From the IMG/VR virus record IMGVR_UViG_3300032254_000001, positions 1 through 64,000 of that record: a stretch of DNA of 64,000 nt; one strand, written 5' to 3'. How positions within the stretch are numbered: the first letter of the stretch is position 1; every line of letters begins with the position of its first letter. A model generated the notes under the pieces. The model was given only the letters and a program-made list of their open reading frames with translations, did no database searches and had not been told where the DNA came from. Of the stretch, positions 13,994 through 62,876 are shown piece after piece. Origin of the DNA: a virus (lineage: Duplodnaviria > Caudoviricetes). Position numbers and translations under genes: made by a program.

Positions 13994-14063
13994 ATTATAC
14001 GGTGATCTGGGGTAAAGGTCAACCTTTTATTGCATTATTTGTGGTATATAAATCAATGACTTA
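13994..14063 (-). promoter_or_regulatory. sigma70-type promoter plus IHF-like site
   Basis: TTGACC-17-TATAAT-TAGTACATAG (13994-14022); AATCAATGACTTA at 14051-14063. Confidence 0.75.
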
Positions 14064-14555
14064 GCAGTTTTTTGCCTCTTTAATGGATTTTCTGCCAGGA
14101 GTTTTACAGTCTCCGAACATATGGGTTTTAACTGTATGGCAGTTTGGGCACAGAGTTTGCAAATTATCCGGGTGATTATTATCCGGGTTTCCGTCAATAT
14201 GATCTACCTGTAAAAGTGCTGAAAATTCTTTGAAGGGCTTTTTAGGATATGTGCATTTAAAGTTCAGTCGCCCGTCGATGTTTTCGCAATAATTTTTTCT
14301 GTGTTTTCTATAAGGATGAGTGCTGTTAACATAATCAGCCACACTATCGAACCCCGCGTTCATTGCCACTACCTGAGCAACATTTTTTAAACCATGTTTT
14401 GCGCCAGTCCGTGTATCGTGGCATTGGCGACACCATTTACGATAATGTGTTCTGCCTGTGCCACGATAATTATGGTTTGTTGCAACTTGTAAATTATTGC
14501 ATCCCGGAGTGAAGCATGTCGCCTGAGTATACACATCGCGTTTCGTTGTTTGCAC
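14061..14555 (-). CDS. HNH endonuclease
   Basis: LQVDHIDGNPDNNHPDNLQTLCPNCH. Confidence 0.9.
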   Translation of the reverse strand: MQTTKRDVYTQATCFTPGCNNLQVATNHNYRGTGRTHYRKWCRQCHDTRTGAKHGLKNVAQVVAMNAGFDSVADYVNSTHPYRKHRKNYCENIDGRLNFKCTYPKKPFKEFSALLQVDHIDGNPDNNHPDNLQTLCPNCHTVKTHMFGDCKTPGRKSIKEAKNC

Positions 14556-14557
14556 GG

Positions 14558-15043
14558 TTATTTCCTTTTGTTGGGATTCTTCTTATTACTCATTATAGAC
14601 GAGTTAGTGTAGTTTGCAACCTTTTTCGCAACCCATTTGCCGAATTTCTGCATCCGTTCATCTTGCATTAATTTTTCAACAGTGTTGTAATCACGTGCAA
14701 GTTCTTTGTCCGTAAAGGTTGCATGTATGAAATCGTGACACACTCTGTGGATCCGTACTGTCTCCTTGCCCTTCTTACATTTAGGTATAAGGTGATGTTC
14801 CGACATTGTGTTGTCGTAAGGGCGGTAGCATATCGGACATAGGTCTTCAAAGCTATCGCTAAAATCTTTAAGGAATTGGTGTATGTTTTCTTCGGATTCG
14901 ATTGTGTGCTTTAAATCGTCGATAGCATTTTGCTTGTGAAAGTATTCGCCACTTTCGACTACGTCTCCAGAAGGAGTGGTGACATTAAAGCGCCACCACC
15001 CATCTTCATCTTCGTATACTCCTGATACTTCAAACTGCAACAT
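14558..15043 (-). CDS. HNH-fold protein with DUF1508/YegP-like N-terminus
   Basis: CPIC..EHHLIPK..HRVCHDFIH; N-terminal DEDGWWRFNVTTPSGDVVESGEYF. Confidence 0.6.
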   Translation of the reverse strand: MLQFEVSGVYEDEDGWWRFNVTTPSGDVVESGEYFHKQNAIDDLKHTIESEENIHQFLKDFSDSFEDLCPICYRPYDNTMSEHHLIPKCKKGKETVRIHRVCHDFIHATFTDKELARDYNTVEKLMQDERMQKFGKWVAKKVANYTNSSIMSNKKNPNKRK

Positions 15044-16493
15044 TAGCTCTTACTTCGTTAAAAGTAATTTCGTTGTATAAGTCACCTTTGTAGTACACTA
15101 GGTTCATAATATCTTCCAAGTTATCGTCTAGAGGTCCTTGGTCCAACCGTGCTGTAAACAATTCACCAGTTAGAATATCACGTGCAAGTGATAACACACC
15201 TTCCTTAGACTTCTTGCCAGGATCTGTAACAGGATCCTTTGCAATGCCAACCCATTGATCGTCTACTAAAATAGCACACGCCTTTTGAGCAAACTTCAAA
15301 GTATCGCGGTTAACTTTTTGCAGCAATGCACCACCGCTACCAAATATAACAGTGTCAGCAGCGTAGCCTAACTCTTCGGTAACCATATCAAGTACTTCGC
15401 TAATGATAGCGCGGTCGATTCCGTCCCCTTGAATTATGCCTACATTGTTTATCTGCTTGTAACCTTCTGGAGTGGTAGTAGTACCAAACGCTTCAGCTTG
15501 TAGCTTTAACAGCAATGGAATGTTTACCATCATGTCGCCACTGTCCGGACGGAATACAATCTTTGCTTTACTAGCAATGATCTCATCTTTAAGAACGGTA
15601 CAAAGCAATCTAGCTTCACGCTCCATGTCGTAACCATCAATTACAATTGATACAACAGTGCCTTCTACTGCTTGACTTAACTGCTGACGTAAGTAACGCA
15701 ATGCATCTTCTGTACCGCCACCGAACGAACATTGTATGCTGTGTTCAGTTGCGTAAACGCTGAAGCCTGACATTGCTTCTTTATAAAAGAAGTTTGCAGC
15801 TAGTACGCCTTCCACAGTGTCCGATCCTAAAAAGTTAACAAGGTGAGCAGCACCGCCAATTTCAGCAGTCTCAGCACTCGATACGCCACGTCCACCAAAG
15901 TCGTGCAATGCGAATGGCAGTAAGCCTTTGTCCGCACCAGTCTTATCGTAGTACGCTTCGATCTCATTCTTAACAATGTAGTCCATTGTTGCAATAGTTG
16001 TGGGATACCAGATAGCACGTTGGATGAGAGTTTCAAAACCCGCTGACATCCAGAACAGATCTTTGTCTAATACAGTAACGGAATAGATAGGCTGGCTACC
16101 ATTCATAACTGTACCTTCTGGAACTGCTCGGATTATAAGTGGAAGCTTACCGTTGTATTCGTTAACAACTTTCTCCCACGCTTCACGTGCAAACAACTTG
16201 CGACCAAAGTGAGCAACACTGAACTCTTCAGCTGCATCCACATCCGCCATTGTGATTGTTTGTGTAAGGTATCGCTTTAATAGCATCTGCATACCAAATG
16301 GTACAACAGTATCTTCAGGAGCAACACGGGTCTCACCGTATGATGTCATGCCTGCAATGCTAATGTCTGTTGGGTATGCGAAAGGGTGACTAAACTTATA
16401 GCTGTCAATTCTGCATATAAGACTAATGACAAATGTCTCGTCTTGTGTGTATGCGACATCAGTCGCCTTGGGTGTAAATATATCAGTATTCAT
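15030..16493 (-). CDS. nadV: nicotinamide phosphoribosyltransferase (NAMPT)
   Basis: DSYKFSH, LHDFGGRG, ATEHS, RPDSGD, QGDG, FGSGGALLQKVNRDT. Confidence 0.93.
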   Translation of the reverse strand: MNTDIFTPKATDVAYTQDETFVISLICRIDSYKFSHPFAYPTDISIAGMTSYGETRVAPEDTVVPFGMQMLLKRYLTQTITMADVDAAEEFSVAHFGRKLFAREAWEKVVNEYNGKLPLIIRAVPEGTVMNGSQPIYSVTVLDKDLFWMSAGFETLIQRAIWYPTTIATMDYIVKNEIEAYYDKTGADKGLLPFALHDFGGRGVSSAETAEIGGAAHLVNFLGSDTVEGVLAANFFYKEAMSGFSVYATEHSIQCSFGGGTEDALRYLRQQLSQAVEGTVVSIVIDGYDMEREARLLCTVLKDEIIASKAKIVFRPDSGDMMVNIPLLLKLQAEAFGTTTTPEGYKQINNVGIIQGDGIDRAIISEVLDMVTEELGYAADTVIFGSGGALLQKVNRDTLKFAQKACAILVDDQWVGIAKDPVTDPGKKSKEGVLSLARDILTGELFTARLDQGPLDDNLEDIMNLVYYKGDLYNEITFNEVRANVAV

Positions 16494-16508
16494 AATTAAA
16501 CTCCTTAA

Positions 16509-17417
16509 TTATTTTGAAAAACTTAACATTCTTTGGATTGGCTTTCTAGCTAGCTCAATTTCATCGTCTGTTAAATAGTCTATTGCGGTACCACCAGTAC
16601 CGTTAATTGCTGCCCGAACAGCCTCTATTGTATTCATCTTCATGAAAGGACAAATATTACAAGAACATCCATTATACCCTAAAGCAGGTCTAATGTCAAG
16701 CTCTTTTCGCGCTTTTCGCATGTCATTTAGTAGGCCTTCCTCAGTTGCTACCCAAATTGTGCCAACCTTATGGGGGAAATCCTTCACCCATTGTAGCATT
16801 TTATTGGTAGAACCAACGAAGTCCGCCATTTCTAGTAAATCCAGTTGAGCTTCTGGGTGGGCAAGGACGTACTTGCCTCCATCCGTCCACCCACGCATAT
16901 CCTTCTTAAGCTGGTCTGCATTCATCATATCGTGTACATCGCATACAGAAGTATAAACTCCCATATCGTAACCAAATTCCTTATTGATGTATGATCCCAT
17001 GTTAGCATCAGGGCTGAATATAACGTCATTACCGCTATCAATTTCTGCCTCTACAATTGCGTTAACATTTGCAGATGTAACAATAATGTCAGCCATGCCT
17101 TTCATTGCAACCGAGCTGTTAATGTACATGATGTGAGTTGCGTCGTGATTAGCTGTGCGCCATTTACGTAACTCGTCTAAGTCAGTCTGTTCAACTAATG
17201 AACACGTTGCCTTAAAATCAGGTATAATAACTTCAGTGTCCGGAAGCATAACCTTTGCAGTTTCTGCCATAAATCTAACACCGGCAAAAACTATACGCTT
17301 AGGATTAACTCGTTGCGCTTCTTCTATTAAGCCTAAGCTATCACCAACAAAGTCAGCCATGGCTTTAACTTCTTCAGGAGCGTACCAGTGTGCTAAAATT
17401 AAAGTATCTTTATTCAT
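16509..17417 (-). CDS. nadA: quinolinate synthase A
   Basis: LAHWY, GDS, GVRFMAETAK, CSL, YINS, CDVH, AHPE, GST, CPFMK (three Fe-S cysteines). Confidence 0.93.
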   Translation of the reverse strand: MNKDTLILAHWYAPEEVKAMADFVGDSLGLIEEAQRVNPKRIVFAGVRFMAETAKVMLPDTEVIIPDFKATCSLVEQTDLDELRKWRTANHDATHIMYINSSVAMKGMADIIVTSANVNAIVEAEIDSGNDVIFSPDANMGSYINKEFGYDMGVYTSVCDVHDMMNADQLKKDMRGWTDGGKYVLAHPEAQLDLLEMADFVGSTNKMLQWVKDFPHKVGTIWVATEEGLLNDMRKARKELDIRPALGYNGCSCNICPFMKMNTIEAVRAAINGTGGTAIDYLTDDEIELARKPIQRMLSFSK

Positions 17418-18372
17418 CGCCCACCTCCTGGATTATTTCAAATAGCCTTAGGCCTTTTGCTTCGTCAGTTGCGTGATCAATGCCATCAATTGCATTTTGT
17501 AAACTAGTCTTAATGGACTTTAGTTTCTTTGTGTCCATAGTACGTACAAATTCAGCAGCATTGTTGGCTTTTCTAATATCAAACGAAGCACCGCATACAA
17601 TGGAACTTTTGTTAAATGCTGTATCGGTTGCATTGCGGAATCCTAGTATCATTGCAATCTCTGACATTGATACGTCAACTAAGAACCCACCGTGTGTATC
17701 TGCTATGATCTTCATTTTGCACCTCCTACGATACCGTGACGTTGCAATACAGCAATCTCGTCTTCGTTAAGTTTATCAAGTGTTTGCTTAAGAAAAATGT
17801 CTTCCTCTTCTTCTTTAATTTCCTGGAAGACTTGCTGCATACGAACGACACGCATTGTACCAAAGTGTACTTTCTCTTTACCGTAGTACGATGTCATTTG
17901 TTTTGCAGAACGTAGCAATGCAAATGCCTTGCCTATTTCCTTAAACACGTTGCGGCTTTCAACCCGACTACTAAAGAAAGGATAGCCACCGCTGTGATCG
18001 TCAATACCAATGAAGCCGATGCCACCATCGGAGGTATCATAAATTACTGTATAACCTTTATCGATTTTGTTATTCATTTTGGCCTCCGTACTTTGTAGTC
18101 TATGATTTTAACTTTACGCTTTTTAGTAACATCTTCTAAACAAGTGTCTAGCTTTATGCCGTAAGCGTCAAGCTTAATGTATGCCTTGTACTGGTTTACA
18201 TAACGTGGAATACCCATGTCGTAGTATTCCTTACTTTCAAGTTTCCAGGTAACTTTGAAATCTTGTACTGACTCATCTGGCATCTGTAGTGTGATGCGAG
18301 ATAGTGCTGCGGTTACGTCAGTCTTATCGATTTCCCAATAAAGGTCTTCCCAGTTGTTAGTTATTTTAAGTC

Positions 18373-18777
18373 TCATCGTTCTGCTCCCATGGTGTCGTAG
18401 CCTGAACGCTCGTAACGTGGAGCTTCATCGCGCTTCTCAACTGCATTGCTTGCGCTTAACTCGTACAATGCATCGGCGCTATAATGTGGACGGTATATAG
18501 GTTGTCCCTTCCACTTAAACTGTTCACGCGCCTCGTGTTCTACTGCGGCGAGTACAGCTTTAAGACCTGTGCTAAGAATCTCTTCGTCGCACATATGAAA
18601 GCTCAACATCCATTTACGGCAGTTCTGCAATTGCATCTCACCATCTGGATTCATGTTGTCTTGTGCTAAGAACTTAACTTGTAAGTACGGCACATCGTTC
18701 GTATAACGTAACAGGATGTTCCAGTCGTTAAATGAAAGTTCGTTTACTAATTTTTCTAATGATTCTTTTGTTTGCAT
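18373..18777 (-). CDS. conserved hypothetical phage protein
   Basis: CRKWMLS..AVEHEAREQF pattern; in operon with NAD genes. Confidence 0.6.
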   Translation of the reverse strand: MQTKESLEKLVNELSFNDWNILLRYTNDVPYLQVKFLAQDNMNPDGEMQLQNCRKWMLSFHMCDEEILSTGLKAVLAAVEHEAREQFKWKGQPIYRPHYSADALYELSASNAVEKRDEAPRYERSGYDTMGAER

Positions 18778-18787
18778 GATAGTCTCC

Positions 18788-19828
18788 CTACGCTCTGCTT
18801 AACATGTTCTTTATGATTGAGTAGTGATCCTCAAACATAACGCCTTGCATTGTTTCAAATTCTGCAAGCGATACCCATTTAATATTTTGGGTTTCTTCGT
18901 TACCTTTTACTTTTGGTAACACGGCTGCGTTATCTAGTTGAAACAGAAATGCGTGTGTAATTGTGCGACCACGTGTTGAACGATTAGGATCATCAAAGTA
19001 GTCCTGGTGTGCGATAGAACCGCGTAGTACCTTTTCGGGTACCTTCAGTCTAGTCTCTTCACGTAGTTCGCGAAGTACAGTATTCTTTAACTTCTCACCT
19101 GGGTCAACAAAGCCGCCGGGCATTGCCCACAAACCTTTACCGGGGTAACCGTTACGCTGTATAAGCAAGATGTGTCCGCTTTGTTCTACTACGGCATCAG
19201 CAGTAACGAAGGTTGGCTCGTATGGTGCTGCTTTCCACGCTTTCTTGTAAGCTTCAACGTAATCCCATTCTTTTTGCAGCCCTTCAAACACATCAGACTT
19301 TAGAAAGTCACGTACTTGAGTACCTGGAACTACCCCATCAACAAACGATAATTGATTAGTAAACATCAGTTGCCTGATCTTAGTTGAATCAATTGTATCG
19401 CCTACTTCTGGATAAGCTGGCATTTCGATATATTCCCATTGGGGGAAATAGTTTAGGTAATAACTGCTGTGGTCTTTGTCGTGTCCGATAACTGCAACAC
19501 GGATACACTTTTCATCACGTAGACGAATATCCTGTACCGTTTTAGTAATCTTCTCACCTACTTGCTGGATCCATTCGTTATCGTTGTAACTGTAATCATT
19601 AAGACCATCAGTATACAAACTGATATCATCAAAGCTTGATTGAATAGCATCAGAGCGTTCGTCGTATGTCCAGGGGTTTCGTATGGTGCGCGGTCCGTTA
19701 GCAGAACCTATTAATACCAACACGTTGTTGGCAATGTTGCTAGCTACACGAACAGTTTCGCGGTGGCCTTTGTGGAATGGTTGAAATCTGCCAATGAAAA
19801 CTACTAAATCATATTTTTTATCATTCAT
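18788..19828 (-). CDS. nadM: bifunctional NMN adenylyltransferase / ADP-ribose pyrophosphatase (NadM-Nudix)
   Basis: GRFQPFHKGH (HxGH) and Nudix box GGFVDPGE....VLRELREET. Confidence 0.95.
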   Translation of the reverse strand: MNDKKYDLVVFIGRFQPFHKGHRETVRVASNIANNVLVLIGSANGPRTIRNPWTYDERSDAIQSSFDDISLYTDGLNDYSYNDNEWIQQVGEKITKTVQDIRLRDEKCIRVAVIGHDKDHSSYYLNYFPQWEYIEMPAYPEVGDTIDSTKIRQLMFTNQLSFVDGVVPGTQVRDFLKSDVFEGLQKEWDYVEAYKKAWKAAPYEPTFVTADAVVEQSGHILLIQRNGYPGKGLWAMPGGFVDPGEKLKNTVLRELREETRLKVPEKVLRGSIAHQDYFDDPNRSTRGRTITHAFLFQLDNAAVLPKVKGNEETQNIKWVSLAEFETMQGVMFEDHYSIIKNMLSRA

Positions 19829-19850: not shown

Positions 19851-20570
19851 ATGAATAAGTTAAAACCGATAAATAAAACTATGTTTATTGAAAATAAGTA
19901 TAAAACATGGTATTATAATATCATTGACTCGGCGCAATTTAGAAAAGTGCCGAGCATTACTGAAAAACATCATATTATTCCGAAATCGTTGGGCGGTAGT
20001 GATGCTCCTGAAAATCTTGCGTATCTTACTCCCCGAGAACATTATATTTGTCACGCTTGTTTGACAAAAATCACGCAAGGAGAAGCTCTGAACAAAATGA
20101 TTTATGCCTTTTGGTGTATGTCCAATCGATTTAATAAATCGCAATTTTCTAGGTCTAGGCTGTATGAGCAAGCCCGCAGTGCATTTGTAAAAACTAAGAG
20201 CGAAGCAATGAAAGGTGCTGGTAATCATTTTCATGGCCGCACCCACTCAAAAGAGACTCGGCGTAAGATGTCCGAAAATAATGCAATGCGTCGACTGGAG
20301 GTTCGAGAAAAATGTAAAGGTCCTCGGCCTGATTTCTTACCGCATAACCATTTTACTGGATGGAACGATGAGGTAAAAGCAAAGATTTCAAAATCACTTA
20401 GTGGTCGTAAATTATCTAAAGAAACAAAAGATAAAATGAAAGAATCAAAAGCTAATTTGGTTTGGGTGTATAAAGAGCATACCAAACCAAAACAAGTTGA
20501 TAGCTTGAATTTATCTACACTATTAGCTAGCGGTTGGTTGCGTGGACGAGGACCACGCAAATATTGGTAA
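19851..20570 (+). mobile_element. free-standing HNH/NUMOD3 homing endonuclease, opposite orientation
   Basis: EKHHIIPKSLGGSD..NL.YLTPREHYICH plus NUMOD3-like HSKETRRKMS repeats. Confidence 0.85.
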
Positions 20571-20616
20571 TTTGTATTCATCGTATTAGACTCCCTAATT
20601 GATGTTTCTTGTGCTA

Positions 20617-20645
20617 ATTATAGCAAGGTATAACTACTTAGTCAA
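20617..20645 (-). promoter_or_regulatory. sigma70-type promoter
   Basis: TTGACT-17-TATAAT upstream of NAD operon. Confidence 0.7.
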
Positions 20646-22370: not shown

Positions 22371-22919
22371 TTACACCTTTATTAAATTGTTAATTTCTAT
22401 AGGTAACCAAAAGTCTTCCGAGCGTTCTGGATGCCAAACTACGCCAGCTAAATTGCCGTCGATCCATGCTTCAACGTTGCCATCCATGTCTGTTGCCAGT
22501 GGTGTTGCTGTACTGTGCAACTTTTTAATATTTAACGTATGATAGCTATTCACTAATATTTCTTCGTTGTTATATAAAATTGTGTGTTCTGTGTTATGAT
22601 GATTGTCGATTTCGGAAATTGTACTACCTAATAGGTCAGCTAGGAAAAAACACCCGTGGCAAACACCAAGTACCGGTTTATTCTGTTTAAGCATTTCCGA
22701 AGCTAGTTTAGTTTCGGTAACTCGACGTTTAATTGAATCGTCGCCACCTGTAATTATTAATAGGTCGATAGACTTTGCAATTTCTTTAAAATCTTGTGTG
22801 GGGATATTTGAGACAAAAAATAACGTATGACCCGTTAAATGATTGAACCAATTATGTTCAATCGAGTCATACGCTATATTGTTATGATAAAGGACCCTCT
22901 GTGTGAGTCCGATATTCAT
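22371..22919 (-). CDS. class I glutamine amidotransferase (peptidase C26-like)
   Basis: LIITGGDD, LGVCHG (nucleophile Cys), VNSYH, WHPE. Confidence 0.88.
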   Translation of the reverse strand: MNIGLTQRVLYHNNIAYDSIEHNWFNHLTGHTLFFVSNIPTQDFKEIAKSIDLLIITGGDDSIKRRVTETKLASEMLKQNKPVLGVCHGCFFLADLLGSTISEIDNHHNTEHTILYNNEEILVNSYHTLNIKKLHSTATPLATDMDGNVEAWIDGNLAGVVWHPERSEDFWLPIEINNLIKV

Positions 22920-23597
22920 TTACACGGCAACGGCTGTGTTAGCGTTGCTGATGCTCATTAAGTCAGCGCGGATTTGCGGAGCAAGTACATTAACTTCTTC
23001 GATAACTGAGCTGTCAGCTTCGATTAAGGTAGCTAATTTGCGTTCACCGATAGAAGCATGGAAGCCTTCATCACGTGCAATTTTAGCATAACGTGAAGAA
23101 ACAAATGTATCTTCGATGCAGTTAGCCATTTCGTCCCAAACTGCTTCAGCACGACCTTCAGCAATGAGCTGATATAAAGCTAATGAAACTGGGTTTGTAG
23201 AAGCTTCGTATTTTGTTAATAGTGTAGCACCTTTTGCCGCTGAACCAGTGTCTGTAGCTTCTGCTGCTGCTGATTTCATTTTAGCGTCAAGATCAATCTC
23301 ATCGCCTGCAATGTGCTCTATAACATCTTTAACCATTTTGAAGTGTACAGCTTCGTCAAAAGCTTGCTTAGAAAGTAATTCTAATTCTTCAGCAGGTGTA
23401 TCAAGCGGCATGTTAGCAACTTGCTTTGAAATTTCTACCATGTTCATACGTTCGTTAACCATACGGCCAACAAAGTGATCTACTAATTCTTCTTTTGAAG
23501 GATTGCTTGCGAAGTAGTTACGTGCATTTGCACGGCTAGCTTCGAATAATGTGTTGTTATCTTCTTTAATTTGTGAAATTACTGCTTTTGTATCCAT
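22920..23597 (-). CDS. ferritin-like diiron protein
   Basis: E(RMN)..DEAVH..E(GRA)..DEGFH ligand pattern; start moved to MDTKAV. Confidence 0.8.
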   Translation of the reverse strand: MDTKAVISQIKEDNNTLFEASRANARNYFASNPSKEELVDHFVGRMVNERMNMVEISKQVANMPLDTPAEELELLSKQAFDEAVHFKMVKDVIEHIAGDEIDLDAKMKSAAAEATDTGSAAKGATLLTKYEASTNPVSLALYQLIAEGRAEAVWDEMANCIEDTFVSSRYAKIARDEGFHASIGERKLATLIEADSSVIEEVNVLAPQIRADLMSISNANTAVAV

Positions 23598-24145
23598 TTT
23601 TATATTTTCCTCTGAGATTATTATACAAAGGGACGTCGTTGTTAGTCGGATATCCCAAATGGGTAGTAACATACTGGATATCGACTGATATCACAATCTA
23701 AATTCTTGAGTTGTTACTAACGTTTATTTATTTAAAAATTCACTTTACGATATTTTTATTAAAACTTACCACCGCCGAGCATTTCGTTAACAGCTTGCAT
23801 GTCTCGCCCAGGCTTATAAGATTCCATGTATGCGTTGATATTTATAGAAGCATCAACATCATGAAATGAAAATACATTCATCTCTAGCTGACCAGTTGTG
23901 TGATTTTTGTGGATTATCCACCTGTTGACGTCACCGGCTTCTACTTCGTCTGTGCGTTCGACAGCACCCCATTTGAATTTATCAACGTCTACAGATAGTT
24001 TAAGATAGGTTTTAACGGCATCCAACTCGCCGTCAAAATCCATTATAATGCGTGGTGGATACTTCTTGACGCCATCGGCGTCAAGAGTTCCTTCGTTTGA
24101 GATAGTGATCTTGAACTTCATGTTACTGCCCCTTAGGGTTACAAA

Positions 24146-55749: not shown

Positions 55750-56237
55750 ATTAATTTCAGTAACTTTAGTTTCGCTAGAGTTGAAGCTGGATCTGTGTGT
55801 AGTATGCCTACGCCGCCGTGTTCTATCCATAGTTTAATGTTGCGGTCGTAATCATCTATTAACAAAGCTCCAGGATTCTTTTCAAGGAATTTGTATTTGT
55901 TCTTACCGCCTTCGATAGTGTTAACAACAATCGAATCATCCACGTATTCATGGAACCATCTACGTTTGTCATCACACGAAGTGGCAAGCTCCTTTGTTGG
56001 CAATGGTGCACCAGTAAGTACCTCAACAACTTCCGGACCGTGAATATCTAAAACTAGCTTAAACATTTCATAAGCATTTGGAAGTAGCTCCAGAGTATAA
56101 TAAAACTCTGGAACTGTGTCGATCAGGTGCCAAAACTTATCTGTGGTACGATCCCAATAATGCATACCGCATTGTTCAACAATACCTTTTTCAAAGTTTG
56201 CCATTACACCATCTAAATCAAAATATATCTTTTTCAT
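55746..56237 (-). CDS. 5'(3')-nucleotidase-like HAD protein
   Basis: IYFDLDGVMANF, VLTG, LLIDDYDRNI..W. Confidence 0.82.
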   Translation of the reverse strand: MKKIYFDLDGVMANFEKGIVEQCGMHYWDRTTDKFWHLIDTVPEFYYTLELLPNAYEMFKLVLDIHGPEVVEVLTGAPLPTKELATSCDDKRRWFHEYVDDSIVVNTIEGGKNKYKFLEKNPGALLIDDYDRNIKLWIEHGGVGILHTDPASTLAKLKLLKLI

Positions 56238-57214
56238 TATACCACCGGGTTAATTAATACGTCAGTGTAAACACCAACTAACCATTCGTTCCAGCTGTTA
56301 ACATCTACCCTTGCAGGCAAGTCACTTACTAGTACCAACTCGTCAATTTCTTCAACAAGTGATTCAAGTACATCTGAAACTTCTGTTTTGTAATCACAGT
56401 CACCGTTCTTAACATTACGCAAGAACTCAGTTTCTGCAAGAGGGTACGCAAATGAGCCGTTCTTTAAGATCGAACGCAATTGGTAACCTGCACGTAACGC
56501 ATGACTAACTGCCTTCCAGTCAACGCCTTCATTCTTTTCTGCAAGTAACGCACGAGCACCGTAACCAGCTAATGCCTTCTGAACACGATCTAAAACATAT
56601 TCAGTAGTATTAGTATCTTGGTACTTCTTGCCGTTAACTTCGTAGAACCTGTTAACTACACCAGTCTTCTCTTGCGCCAGTTCGATCTTGTTAGCGTACT
56701 CGTTTTCAGGAAGCTTATCCCAAACGTCACTTAAAGGGTATTCGCCTTTAGGCATACCTTCTAAGAATTCAATTGAGTCACGCATTGCTGAAATACGAGA
56801 ACCTTTAAGGCCGTACTTTGCTGCCTGTCGCTTAACGTAACCCATGTACGCTTTCAAGTTCTTAGTGTAGAACAGTTCGCGAATGCTAACAAGGTGTTCC
56901 CAAATCCAACCGTACTCTGGATCAATTTCGACTGCAACCAAATCAGGGTTAACATGCAACATATCTAATGCAACCGTTTCACCTTTGGTAGCAAGCTTAA
57001 TGAACTCGGCCAGAGAGTACCAATCGTCATCAATGTCACCAGCACCGTTCTTGGAATTATCATCACCAGTTGAATGGCTGATGTTTTTCGCAGCGGTGCC
57101 CAAAAGCAACTCGTCCAATTCGGGCAAGTAGATACCTTTGTAGTCCATGTCTGAGTTTGGGGTGTTAAGGCCGTACATGTGAGAGCCAAAAACCATTCGT
57201 ACAATCTTTTTCAT
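56237..57214 (-). CDS. nucleotidyltransferase (T4 NrdC.11-like, pol-beta superfamily)
   Basis: FGSHMYGLNTPNSDMDYKGIY, VDWKAVSHALR. Confidence 0.85.
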   Translation of the reverse strand: MKKIVRMVFGSHMYGLNTPNSDMDYKGIYLPELDELLLGTAAKNISHSTGDDNSKNGAGDIDDDWYSLAEFIKLATKGETVALDMLHVNPDLVAVEIDPEYGWIWEHLVSIRELFYTKNLKAYMGYVKRQAAKYGLKGSRISAMRDSIEFLEGMPKGEYPLSDVWDKLPENEYANKIELAQEKTGVVNRFYEVNGKKYQDTNTTEYVLDRVQKALAGYGARALLAEKNEGVDWKAVSHALRAGYQLRSILKNGSFAYPLAETEFLRNVKNGDCDYKTEVSDVLESLVEEIDELVLVSDLPARVDVNSWNEWLVGVYTDVLINPVV

Positions 57215-60549: not shown

Positions 60550-61329
60550 TTAAGCTTCTACAGCTTCTAGTGACTGTTCAACGTAGCTACGATCGCCTGT
60601 AAAGATAGGTATTTCTCTATCGATTCTAATTTCACGATTTGGAGCAGTTTCCAATTCACGACGTGTTACACAAGTGCCGCGCTTCTTCCACGTTTCGATA
60701 TCGTTCCAATTAACACCGTGCGTAAGCATAAGCATATCTTGCACTTGACTAACATTTTTCCCATGTAGTTCTTTGTGGGAGAAGTAGTGCTGTGCCAACA
60801 TGTTAATGCTGTTACGGGTTGCGTCCTGCTGGCGCCATACGAAGTAGTTAGTAACTTCTTCTTTTGGCAAGTTCCAAACACGCGCATCAAATAGAGCAGG
60901 AGCTGCTTCTTTAGTTGCGTCAGTTCCAACAAGGTGCGCAAAGGTTTGGTTGAAGTAAGCCGTTGCCATACTTGCTGCAACAGATACAATCTTCTGTACG
61001 TTGTTACCAAACCACTGATCAGTTGTTAACGTAGACCAATCGTTTAATAGGATTGAAATCTCGTCAGACTGGGTGTAGCCAAGAACAGCATTCTGGATAT
61101 TCGCTACCAGTTTCTCAGTAGTAATGGCCATAGTTTGGTTCATTACATCGCTGAATGGATCCTGTTCCAGACTAGGATCAACATGCTTTAAGCATTTGGT
61201 CCAAGTGTGAAATGCCTTTCCATCAAGGCGGATTATTACTGGAGTTCGTTTCGTTAGGGTAGTTTTAGATACATGTTCGTATTCCTTCATTCGTGTTCCT
61301 AACGAATCTTTACTGTACTTTTGGCTCAT
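60550..61329 (-). CDS. thg1: tRNA(His) guanylyltransferase Thg1-like protein
   Basis: IIRLDGKAFHTWT, YTQSDEISIL, FDAR, YFVWRQQDATRNS. Confidence 0.93.
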   Translation of the reverse strand: MSQKYSKDSLGTRMKEYEHVSKTTLTKRTPVIIRLDGKAFHTWTKCLKHVDPSLEQDPFSDVMNQTMAITTEKLVANIQNAVLGYTQSDEISILLNDWSTLTTDQWFGNNVQKIVSVAASMATAYFNQTFAHLVGTDATKEAAPALFDARVWNLPKEEVTNYFVWRQQDATRNSINMLAQHYFSHKELHGKNVSQVQDMLMLTHGVNWNDIETWKKRGTCVTRRELETAPNREIRIDREIPIFTGDRSYVEQSLEAVEA

Positions 61330-61999
61330 GGCTCCCCCAGTTTTGGTGTACGTTTCTGTGACACGGTCTACATAATGTAATACCGTTTTCTAAATTTTCA
61401 TCGATAATTTTGGGTTGTTTTAATAACCAATCTACCTTTTCTATTTTTGATAAATTATTTTTATCTATAAGTAGTTCTTTAATAATTGTTGCCAGTGGTA
61501 CAATATGATGCACATCTAAATTTTTTGTTGCTAGGCAATGCTGGCATGTTTTATTGTCACGTTCCATGACTCGGTGAAACCAATTATAAAGACGTTGCGT
61601 ACCAGACTTAACCATTTTGTTAACACCTGCTTTTCCGCCTTTCCAATTTGTTGCTTTTGGTCCGGTTCGGTTCTTCCAAATCTTCGCACGTTTAATTTTG
61701 GATGCAGTAGAAAAAGTTTTGCCGAACATGCCGTTATTGGAACCACTTGTATCCCTATTTTTGATTGCTTCGTAGTATGCTTCGCTCTTCATATTGTCTT
61801 GCCAAAATTCTTTGCTATTTTGTGGGCGTTTCGCGGCCCCAGCCTTTCTCGCACACTGCAAACATAAATCAATTTTACCTTCTTGCCGTCTTCTTGCAGT
61901 TTTAACATTCTTTAATTTCCGATCAAATATCGTCGGGCATTCATCGCATTGGACGGTTACTATATCGTTATTTGTTACTTTGTCTTTTGTAATAATCAT
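61310..61999 (-). mobile_element. free-standing HNH homing endonuclease
   Basis: NWKGG, RDNKTCQHC..LDVHHI..NGITLCRPCH. Confidence 0.85.
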
Positions 62000-62045: not shown

Positions 62046-62876
62046 TCACGTGTGCCATCCCATTTTAAGTTTTAAATTGTTGAAAAAGTTCCAATCAATT
62101 GGCTGTACAAGGTTAATTGTACGCTTCTTGCAAGTAATTACAACCTTTCCTTCTCCAAAATCATCTAAGCGACGACCGTCTGCAAATATGTTGACTTTGC
62201 GATCCCAGCTAACAGTTATCTTATCCGAATCTGGAAAGATGATCGGACGCGATGTTAATGTATGTGGGAGCATTGGTACCACTTCCAAAACGCCGCTGTT
62301 TGGCGAAAGGATTGAACCACCTGCTGACAATGCAAGTCCTGTTGACCCAAACGGTGTAGAAATTACTATACCAGAACTTTTAGTTTCAAAGTACGAATCC
62401 TTGTCGCCGATTGATACCTTGAAGTCTGCTGCCGAACCATTTGCTGCTGGAACAAAATAGAAATCGTTTACAGCATCGTGACAGCCACGAAACTTTCTTC
62501 GAAAGTTAAGCAAAGGTAATTCGTAATTGGTTACCTTGTATTCTGCAATATCGTCTTCTGTAATTAAATCGTAAATTAGTCTATCTAACTTACCTGTTAA
62601 TTGCGCACCTGTCGTTGCTACGTCTGGTACTAAGTACCCAAGGTTGCCGTAGTTAAACCCTGTAACAAATGCACGACTTTCAGCGGCAAGATGTATAGCT
62701 GACAGCATAGTACCGTCACCACCTAATGCAAGTATTAACGTGCTGGCATCAATTTCATCAGTGTCGCGAATAATGTATAAGTCGCGCTTACGAATAATGT
62801 CGCCAACTTCAACTAATAGCGAATCGCTAATGCCATTATCACCCGGACGGGTGCGTATGTAAACATTCTTAATCAT
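62046..62876 (-). CDS. nadK: NAD kinase
   Basis: LGGDGTML, GNLGYL, AVND, GIVISTPFGSTG..LSAGG. Confidence 0.9.
   Translation of the reverse strand: MIKNVYIRTRPGDNGISDSLLVEVGDIIRKRDLYIIRDTDEIDASTLILALGGDGTMLSAIHLAAESRAFVTGFNYGNLGYLVPDVATTGAQLTGKLDRLIYDLITEDDIAEYKVTNYELPLLNFRRKFRGCHDAVNDFYFVPAANGSAADFKVSIGDKDSYFETKSSGIVISTPFGSTGLALSAGGSILSPNSGVLEVVPMLPHTLTSRPIIFPDSDKITVSWDRKVNIFADGRRLDDFGEGKVVITCKKRTINLVQPIDWNFFNNLKLKMGWHT

Follow-up and report, generated by a model that had tools for sequence, protein, structure and literature searches.

The 64-kb window analysed here is the start of one 344,483-bp viral contig, which has direct terminal repeats and a completeness rating of 100%. On its minus strand lies an operon of seven open reading frames (ORFs), in which a gene for quinolinate synthase, NadA, stands among genes for the salvage of nicotinamide adenine dinucleotide (NAD). 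The ORFs are tightly packed, with overlaps of 4-8 nt or gaps of at most 15 nt, in the order NadM-Nudix, four small ORFs (134, 100, 121 and 101 aa), NadA and nicotinamide phosphoribosyltransferase (NAMPT, NadV). The NAD kinase gene nadK is found 42 kb from nadA in the window and directly adjoins nadA in several relatives. The initial annotation had placed nadM-Nudix, nadA and nadV in one minus-strand run, with nadK as a further gene of the set, and all four gene calls hold by profile matches (Table 1). The major capsid gene of the contig is of the T4 type and shows 62-67% identity to those of Sinorhizobium phage Phosso, Vibrio phage 2.275.O, Pseudomonas phage PA5oct and the Rak2-like Salmonella phages. 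Based on this likeness and the complete 344-kb contig, the source virus is an uncultured jumbo myovirus, with a host that is probably proteobacterial. No close DNA relative of the window was found among the GenBank phages.

Quinolinate synthase within a salvage operon

The NadA translation matches PF02445 over profile positions 10-294 of 295, at 260.8 bits against a cutoff of 27, and aligns at full length to the Thermotoga maritima NadA structures (E 2e-43), which served as the reference for residue comparison. That NadA keeps the three Fe-S cysteines and the catalytic His, Ser and Tyr had been noted in the initial annotation, and the alignment confirmed it. The ligands of the [4Fe-4S] cluster, C72, C159 and C256, correspond to C81, C168 and C254 of T. 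maritima; H10, Y12, S27, F49, Y98, N100 and S115 correspond to H19, Y21, S36, F58, Y107, N109 and S124, and H162, H187, E189 and T204 to H171, H193, E195 and T210. Invariance was judged over 34 members of clade A, the phylogenetic clade that holds the window NadA, and the cluster ligands and the catalytic and substrate-contact residues are invariant in all of them. The roles of the substrate-binding and catalytic residues are those described in the T. maritima structural literature. An AlphaFold2 model, built on the NadA alignment, reached a predicted local distance difference test score (pLDDT) of 93 and a predicted template-modelling score (pTM) of 0.89. In Foldseek the model matched the solved NadA structures 6f4l and 4p3x with a TM-score of 0.85 and a root-mean-square deviation of 2.4 Å over 298 columns, and it has the three-domain fold. 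Family match, residue alignment and model agree that NadA is intact, and it looks like a fully functional quinolinate synthase. Furthermore, the pairwise nonsynonymous divergence (dN) of nadA is 0.18-0.22 with the synonymous divergence (dS) saturated above 1.3, giving an omega of about 0.1; nadA is under strong purifying selection. Between the window phage and a 363-kb relative, the identity of NadA (58%) is the highest of the NAD set, followed by NadM (40%), NAMPT (37%) and NadK (29%).

The phage enzyme shares with the bacterial NadAs of T. maritima, Pyrococcus horikoshii and Escherichia coli the family, the three-domain fold, the three cysteine ligands and the substrate-binding residues. It differs from them in its source, a virus that has neither NadB nor NadC, in belonging to a long-branched and mostly viral clade, and in an invariant CxCxxC motif. 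In the window NadA this motif covers residues 251-256 (codons within 16650-16670), where two extra cysteines stand 3 and 5 residues before the ligand cysteine. The motif resembles the cysteine pair of E. coli NadA reported to form a regulatory disulfide, and it could be a redox switch.

Salvage enzymes are encoded on both sides of nadA. In the NadM-Nudix translation, HKGH represents the HxGH motif and the catalytic glutamates of a Nudix box are present, and NAMPT aligns to a solved bacterial NAMPT with E 2e-104 and retains the active-site motifs DFG-RG, EHS, RPDSGD, QGDG and GSGG. NAMPT and NadM-Nudix in one operon, each above its curated cutoff, is the composition of NARP2, which pairs NAMPT with a nicotinamide mononucleotide (NMN) adenylyltransferase, as in NadV/NatV of Vibrio phage KVP40. 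NARP2 is an experimentally established counter-defence that rebuilds NAD, and the KVP40 genes were found to restore NAD and to overcome NADase defence systems (bioRxiv 10.1101/2024.02.11.579819; 10.64898/2026.01.28.702374). No Prs-family match, such as the Prs-like Adps of NARP1, was obtained in the genome at E ≤ 0.1; the system is therefore of the type that depends on phosphoribosyl pyrophosphate (PRPP), not NARP1. Whereas NARP2 recycles nicotinamide only, the operon described here has NadA between its two genes and the phage adds a NAD kinase, neither of which belongs to the described NARP2. NARP1 (Adps and Namat) and NARP3 (PnuC and NadR) also allow phages to rebuild NAD during infection, but they need a preformed pyridine, nicotinamide or nicotinamide riboside, whereas NadA would make new rings from aspartate and triose phosphate.

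Expression signals were predicted at two places. A strong sigma-70-type promoter with an extended TG, 11/12 in its hexamers, likely drives the NAD operon, and no minus-strand terminator is predicted from it through to nadV. A perfect promoter of the same type lies inside the 3' part of nadA, about 160 nt 5' of nadV, with its hexamers falling on the nadA codons L-D-I ... Y-N. L010, a relative whose NadA is 68% identical and in which nadV also lies directly 3', keeps both hexamers at the corresponding codons around a diverged spacer. In relatives that encode these amino acids by different codons, the hexamers are missing. This pattern looks like a selected internal promoter for nadV. No T4 late motif was found at the NAD operon, and the sigma-70-type promoters together with this absence fit early expression. 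A leader hairpin with a GAYAGAC loop was matched 8 times against 11.8 expected, and never at the NAD genes, and was rejected as a feature of the window on this ground.

Table 1. Positions of the NAD genes, their neighbours and predicted promoters in the 64-kb window
Feature	Position	Strand	Evidence
nadM-Nudix, bifunctional NMN adenylyltransferase / Nudix (ADP-ribose pyrophosphatase type), first gene of the operon	18788..19828	-	NF003786 405.1 bits vs cutoff 397; PF01467, PF00293
134-aa ORF, function unassigned, kept beside nadM in relatives	18373..18777	-	phrog_1540 (unknown function), E 2.4e-20
100-aa ORF	18074..18376	-	start overlaps preceding stop by 4 nt; no Pfam, NCBIfam or PHROG match above threshold
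121-aa ORF	17712..18077	-	4-nt overlap; no family match (Pfam, NCBIfam, PHROG)
101-aa ORF	17410..17715	-	overlaps nadA start by 8 nt; no family or Atlas match
nadA, quinolinate synthase, [4Fe-4S] enzyme, 302 aa	16509..17417	-	PF02445 260.8 bits, E 1.8e-77
nadV, NAMPT, last gene of the operon	15030..16493	-	NF006629 463.2 bits vs cutoff 405; PF18127, PF04095
nadK, NAD kinase	62046..62876	-	PF20143 71.2 bits vs 23.7; PF01513 31.2 bits vs 25.5
HNH-NUMOD3 homing endonuclease gene, between predicted operon promoter and nadM	19851..20570	+	PF07460 E 4e-9, PF01844
Two HNH-type nuclease genes immediately 3' of nadV (HlpB-like, 14558-15043; HNH, 14061-14555)	14061..15043	-	NF058586 57.7 bits; PF01844, PF13392
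Strong sigma-70-type promoter, TTGACT-N17-TATAAT with extended TG, predicted	20617..20645	-	11/12 match
Perfect sigma-70-type promoter, TTGACA-N17-TATAAT, inside 3' part of nadA, predicted	16671..16699	-	12/12 match

Distribution and phylogeny of the phage NadA

A count of nadA in phage databases had been proposed in the initial annotation, and it yielded no bona fide match in GenBank phages, PHROGs or the structures of BFVD. Nine of 50,697 GenBank phage records have a NadA match, all below 35% identity; NAMPT matches 2,015 records. As real phage genes these NadA matches were rejected: the best is a mislabelled bacterial fragment with copA, argJ and tRNAs around nadA, and another that was checked is an unverified record. 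In IMG/VR a single NadA protein as query found no match, and an alignment-based query found 22 NadA loci. A 2022 survey of NAD and ADP-ribose systems in 21,191 viral proteomes named only NadV, NadM and NadR as phage enzymes of NAD synthesis and never mentioned quinolinate. The NARP1/NARP2 preprint, the aRES preprint and the 2026 paper on NARP3 are silent on a phage NadA, and literature searches for quinolinate in combination with jumbo phage, phage-encoded or auxiliary metabolic gene yielded nothing relevant. As far as could be found, an orphan phage NadA in a salvage module is an undescribed feature.

The window NadA shares 55-81% identity with more than 100 metagenomic proteins, many of them on contigs of 185-363 kb. 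In the relatives examined, only a few genes separate NadA from NadM-Nudix and NAMPT, and the NAD kinase often follows it immediately; the two adjoin in L005, L007 and a 272-kb contig, and the gene order varies by lineage. Most relatives in this large clade of uncultured jumbo phages have NadA next to NadM, NAMPT or NadK. The anatomy given in the initial annotation, an intact de novo enzyme within a NARP2-type salvage operon without NadB or NadC, thus stands and recurs across the jumbo-phage clade. In the 363-kb relative, genes for a NAD-dependent ligase, NADAR and PurA stand beside NadA, and none of the three has a homologue in the genome of the window phage.

In a 112-row NadA phylogeny, clade A is strongly supported and mostly viral or metagenomic, with a stem of 1.4-1.8 substitutions per site. 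A second viral clade, clade B, contains nine records, including genomes of 277-279 kb with terminal repeats, and nests among ordinary bacterial NadAs. Its placement elsewhere in the tree points to an independent acquisition of NadA by a second jumbo-phage lineage; the 277-279-kb genomes of this clade carry NAMPT too. A gene for a Thg1-like tRNA-His guanylyltransferase was observed near nadK in the window (60550-61329, minus strand) and near NadA in a clade B phage (L018:12423-13196).

Clade A NadA was also found, at 50-53% identity, in seven bacterial genomes among those listed, namely two species of Vogesella, Paludibacterium, Chitinibacter, Deefgea and two gammaproteobacterial metagenome-assembled genomes (MAGs); all other bacterial matches are at most 42% identical. 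The bacterial clade A nadA genes lie in housekeeping neighbourhoods. Five of the carrier genomes were searched, and four of them (both Vogesella species, Chitinibacter and Paludibacterium) have no NadA other than the phage type, which is accompanied by full-scoring NadB and NadC; an Ectothiorhodospiraceae MAG (L031) has an ordinary NadA in addition. A sole NadA beside NadB and NadC in four bacteria argues, indirectly, that clade A enzymes would work in the canonical de novo pathway together with proteobacterial partners. This distribution implies gene exchange between jumbo phages and some Chromobacteriaceae and Chitinibacteraceae, and the bacterial carriers may hint at the host range of the phages. 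The base of clade A is a polytomy, so that the direction of transfer between phages and bacteria is not fixed by the tree.

Pathway partners and the proposed role of NadA

Pathway partners were sought by six-frame profile searches of the complete genome at E ≤ 0.1, for which control genomes gave matches. NadB, the aspartate dehydrogenase NadX, NadC, the NAD synthetase NadE and the PRPP synthetase Prs were all absent from the 344,483 bp. The initial annotation had seen neither NadB nor NadC and had called for a search of the rest of the genome for nadB, nadC and prs; the first statement holds for the window and for the complete genome, and the search found none of the three genes. NadX as a substitute for NadB is ruled out by the same result, and a complete de novo NAD pathway (NadB/NadX - NadA - NadC - NadD - NadE) is not encoded by the phage genome. 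Nineteen NadA-carrying viral records, of which six have a completeness of 90% or more, were searched over their full length, and neither NadB nor NadC was found in any. NAMPT was found in 12 of the 19 and in five of the six near-complete ones, NadM-Nudix in eight and NadK in four.

Two further genes of the phage were considered in this connection. A class-I glutamine amidotransferase (GATase) gene at 22371-22919 (minus strand) with its adjoining ORF of 250 aa was rejected as a hidden NAD or NMN synthetase, since the partner has no similarity to PP-loop ATPases. The partner of the GATase (the pair occupies 22371-23672 of the window, minus strand), a protein of about 225-250 aa, belongs to a very large metagenomic family that is named rubrerythrin by its sources. 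Elsewhere in the genome, a second nucleotidyltransferase of the HIGH superfamily, of 223 aa (genome 117558-118229, minus strand), is also present in two related genomes; it shows weak similarity to adenylyltransferases of NMN and nicotinic acid mononucleotide (NaMN), far below every cutoff.

The preferred reading, somewhat more probable than not, is that the phage contributes NadA to the host de novo pathway as its labile Fe-S step and in this way adds net NAD synthesis to NARP2-type salvage. An active [4Fe-4S] NadA would be made early in infection, from the same operon as NadM-Nudix and NAMPT. Host NadB would give iminoaspartate, with the feedback inhibition of NadB by NAD being lost as NAD falls; NadA would convert iminoaspartate and dihydroxyacetone phosphate to quinolinate, and host NadC would convert quinolinate to NaMN. 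Host NadD, or possibly the phage NadM, together with host NadE would complete NAD, from which the phage NadK would make NADP. Since the phage has no NadB, NadC or NadE, it would rely on the host for those steps and provide only the oxygen-labile, low-abundance step of the pathway, which would not be re-made after host gene expression stops. New pyridine rings would supplement the nicotinamide-only recycling by NAMPT and NadM, and the phage would gain from an NAD(P) pool that is larger or more robust, for its own demand and under the drain of NADase defences. In E. coli, the Fe-S step carried out by NadA is the oxygen-sensitive one of the pathway, iminoaspartate decays within minutes, NadB is freed from feedback when NAD drops, and NadA is not replenished after host shut-off. 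A cargo of this single enzyme would make sense if the NadA step limits the flux in infected cells. Cyanophage psbA is a phage copy of a labile host bottleneck enzyme, and by analogy the logic would be the same although the pathway is another one: the virus carries the one enzyme of a host pathway that fails first, and the host supplies the rest.

This role is favoured by the finding that NadA stays within a few genes of NadM, NAMPT or NadK even in diverged relatives with rearranged gene order, and it suggests that phages can raise the production of new NAD besides recycling it. Presumably NadA is active in the infected cell, draws on host NadB and NadC and benefits the phage. Several points weigh against such a role. 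In the clade A lineage G004, NadA lies apart from the salvage genes, and in clade B its neighbours are genes for a glycosyltransferase, a ferritin-like protein, an ATP-dependent ligase and Thg1, not the salvage genes. The NCBIfam equivalog cutoffs are narrowly missed (NF006878, 286.5 vs 294; TIGR00550, 231.4 vs 262.9), because this NadA belongs to a divergent, mostly viral long branch. Apart from NadM, whose use of NaMN is putative, nothing encoded by the phage was found to lead from NaMN to NAD; the presence of NadB, NadC, NadD and NadE in the host is assumed. Finally, flux would be gained only if the NadA step is limiting, a premise taken from E. coli.

Other explanations for a lone phage NadA were weighed against the same observations. 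The phage gene might complete the pathway in hosts that lack a working NadA and keep NadB and NadC, so that NAD could be made without external niacin. This would account for the carriage of NadA only, never of NadB or NadC, and nadA is naturally lost in some bacteria. It is nevertheless unlikely, since two independent phage lineages and a clade diverged to 55% NadA identity would all need nadA-deficient hosts, the cellular relatives of clade A NadA have complete pathways, and a state in which only nadA is lost while nadB and nadC persist does not usually last long. A role outside NAD metabolism, in which quinolinate would act as a metal chelator or as a precursor of another product, or NadA would have a side activity, would agree with the lack of phage-encoded downstream enzymes (NadC, NadE) and with the clade B NadA beside a ferritin-like gene and distant from the NAD genes. 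Such a role is quite improbable, as clade A NadA is found repeatedly among NadM, NAMPT and NadK and all residues of the canonical reaction are kept; to our knowledge, no enzyme except NadC consumes quinolinate in bacteria.

A complete novel branch independent of NadC has also been considered, in which quinolinate would be turned into NMN or NAD by a promiscuous NAMPT, by the small ORFs of the operon or by the nucleotidyltransferase at about 118 kb. NadA does recur with NAMPT, which is a homologue of NadC among the type II phosphoribosyltransferases, the small ORFs are translationally coupled within the operon, and the extra HIGH-family enzyme has its weak likeness to NMN and NaMN adenylyltransferases. 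However, NAMPT keeps the DFG-RG motif, the aspartate of which selects the amide of nicotinamide, so that a dicarboxylate is not the expected substrate. Conservation of the small ORFs does not extend across the clade, and no NadE-like amidotransferase is present, the nearby GATase being paired with a rubrerythrin-like protein instead of a PP-loop enzyme; no candidate enzyme for such a branch was found. This branch is therefore given a very low probability. That nadA is a passenger, either captured recently from a host without benefit or introduced by an assembly or binning artefact, is barely credible. Its absence from all bona fide isolated phages searched could be read in this way, but the gene lies on one contig of 344 kb that has terminal repeats and encodes a T4-type capsid protein, has the same GC content as its surroundings, has more than 100 relatives of 55-81% identity on phage-like contigs, and shows an omega of about 0.1 at saturated dS. 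These conservation data effectively exclude the passenger explanation.

If phage NadA supplies the labile de novo step to the host pathway, the purpose of the additional NAD may be of two kinds. The suggestion of the initial annotation that NadA extends a NAD-restoring counter-defence, boosting host de novo synthesis when nicotinamide is lost, is plausible. Its embedding in a NARP2 module favours counter-defence, the link to NAD kinase favours a supply of NAD(P) at least as much, and both are compatible. More tentatively, NadA may represent a fourth phage strategy of NAD restoration, one that would start from aspartate and triose phosphate, not from nicotinamide, ADP-ribose or nicotinamide riboside. 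It would work despite loss of the pyridine ring through deamidation by host PncA, leakage or destruction by a yet-undescribed defence, and the mostly viral CxCxxC clade may be adapted to it, for example by oxygen tolerance or by escape from host regulation; this extension is possible but rather doubtful.

NAD is a central point of conflict between bacteria and phages, and the described NARP1, NARP2 and NARP3 all need a preformed pyridine ring. A quinolinate synthase of jumbo phages that is conserved, selected and twice acquired suggests that phages tap de novo synthesis as well. If so, the known repertoire of counter-defence and auxiliary metabolism would be wider, some defences or host backgrounds would be predicted to make salvage insufficient, and NadA would stand out as the pathway step that limits flux or is the most vulnerable during infection. 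The genes nadM, nadA, nadV and nadK form a simple set in which these predictions are testable, and the biochemistry of the mostly viral NadA clade, for example its oxygen tolerance, may depart from that of the textbook enzyme.

Small ORFs, flanking nucleases and other features

Among the small ORFs of the operon, the one of 134 aa has a counterpart of 132 aa at the equivalent position in the relative L002, and its Atlas matches were below noise, none being usable. The 101-aa ORF is 35-39% identical to the ORFs directly upstream of nadA in L002 and L004 and does not align with those of L005 and L007. It was rejected as a universal partner of NadA, being kept in the closest relatives only, with Atlas matches below noise.

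Genes of HNH-type nucleases lie on both sides of the operon (Table 1), and a further one adjoins nadK (61310-61999, minus strand), so that homing endonuclease genes of this type border the NAD genes. Homing by these genes could spread the NAD module among co-infecting phages. Antisense to the HNH-NUMOD3 gene, a 116-aa ORF with a good ribosome-binding site was observed on the minus strand at 20231-20581. The window also encodes an RNA-repair nucleotidyltransferase of the RlaP type (56237-57214). Among the 38 tRNA genes, ARAGORN reported two whose anticodon loops are irregular, one with 2 bases ('tg') and one with 4 ('gtga'), at 43711-43784 and 45446-45518 (minus strand).

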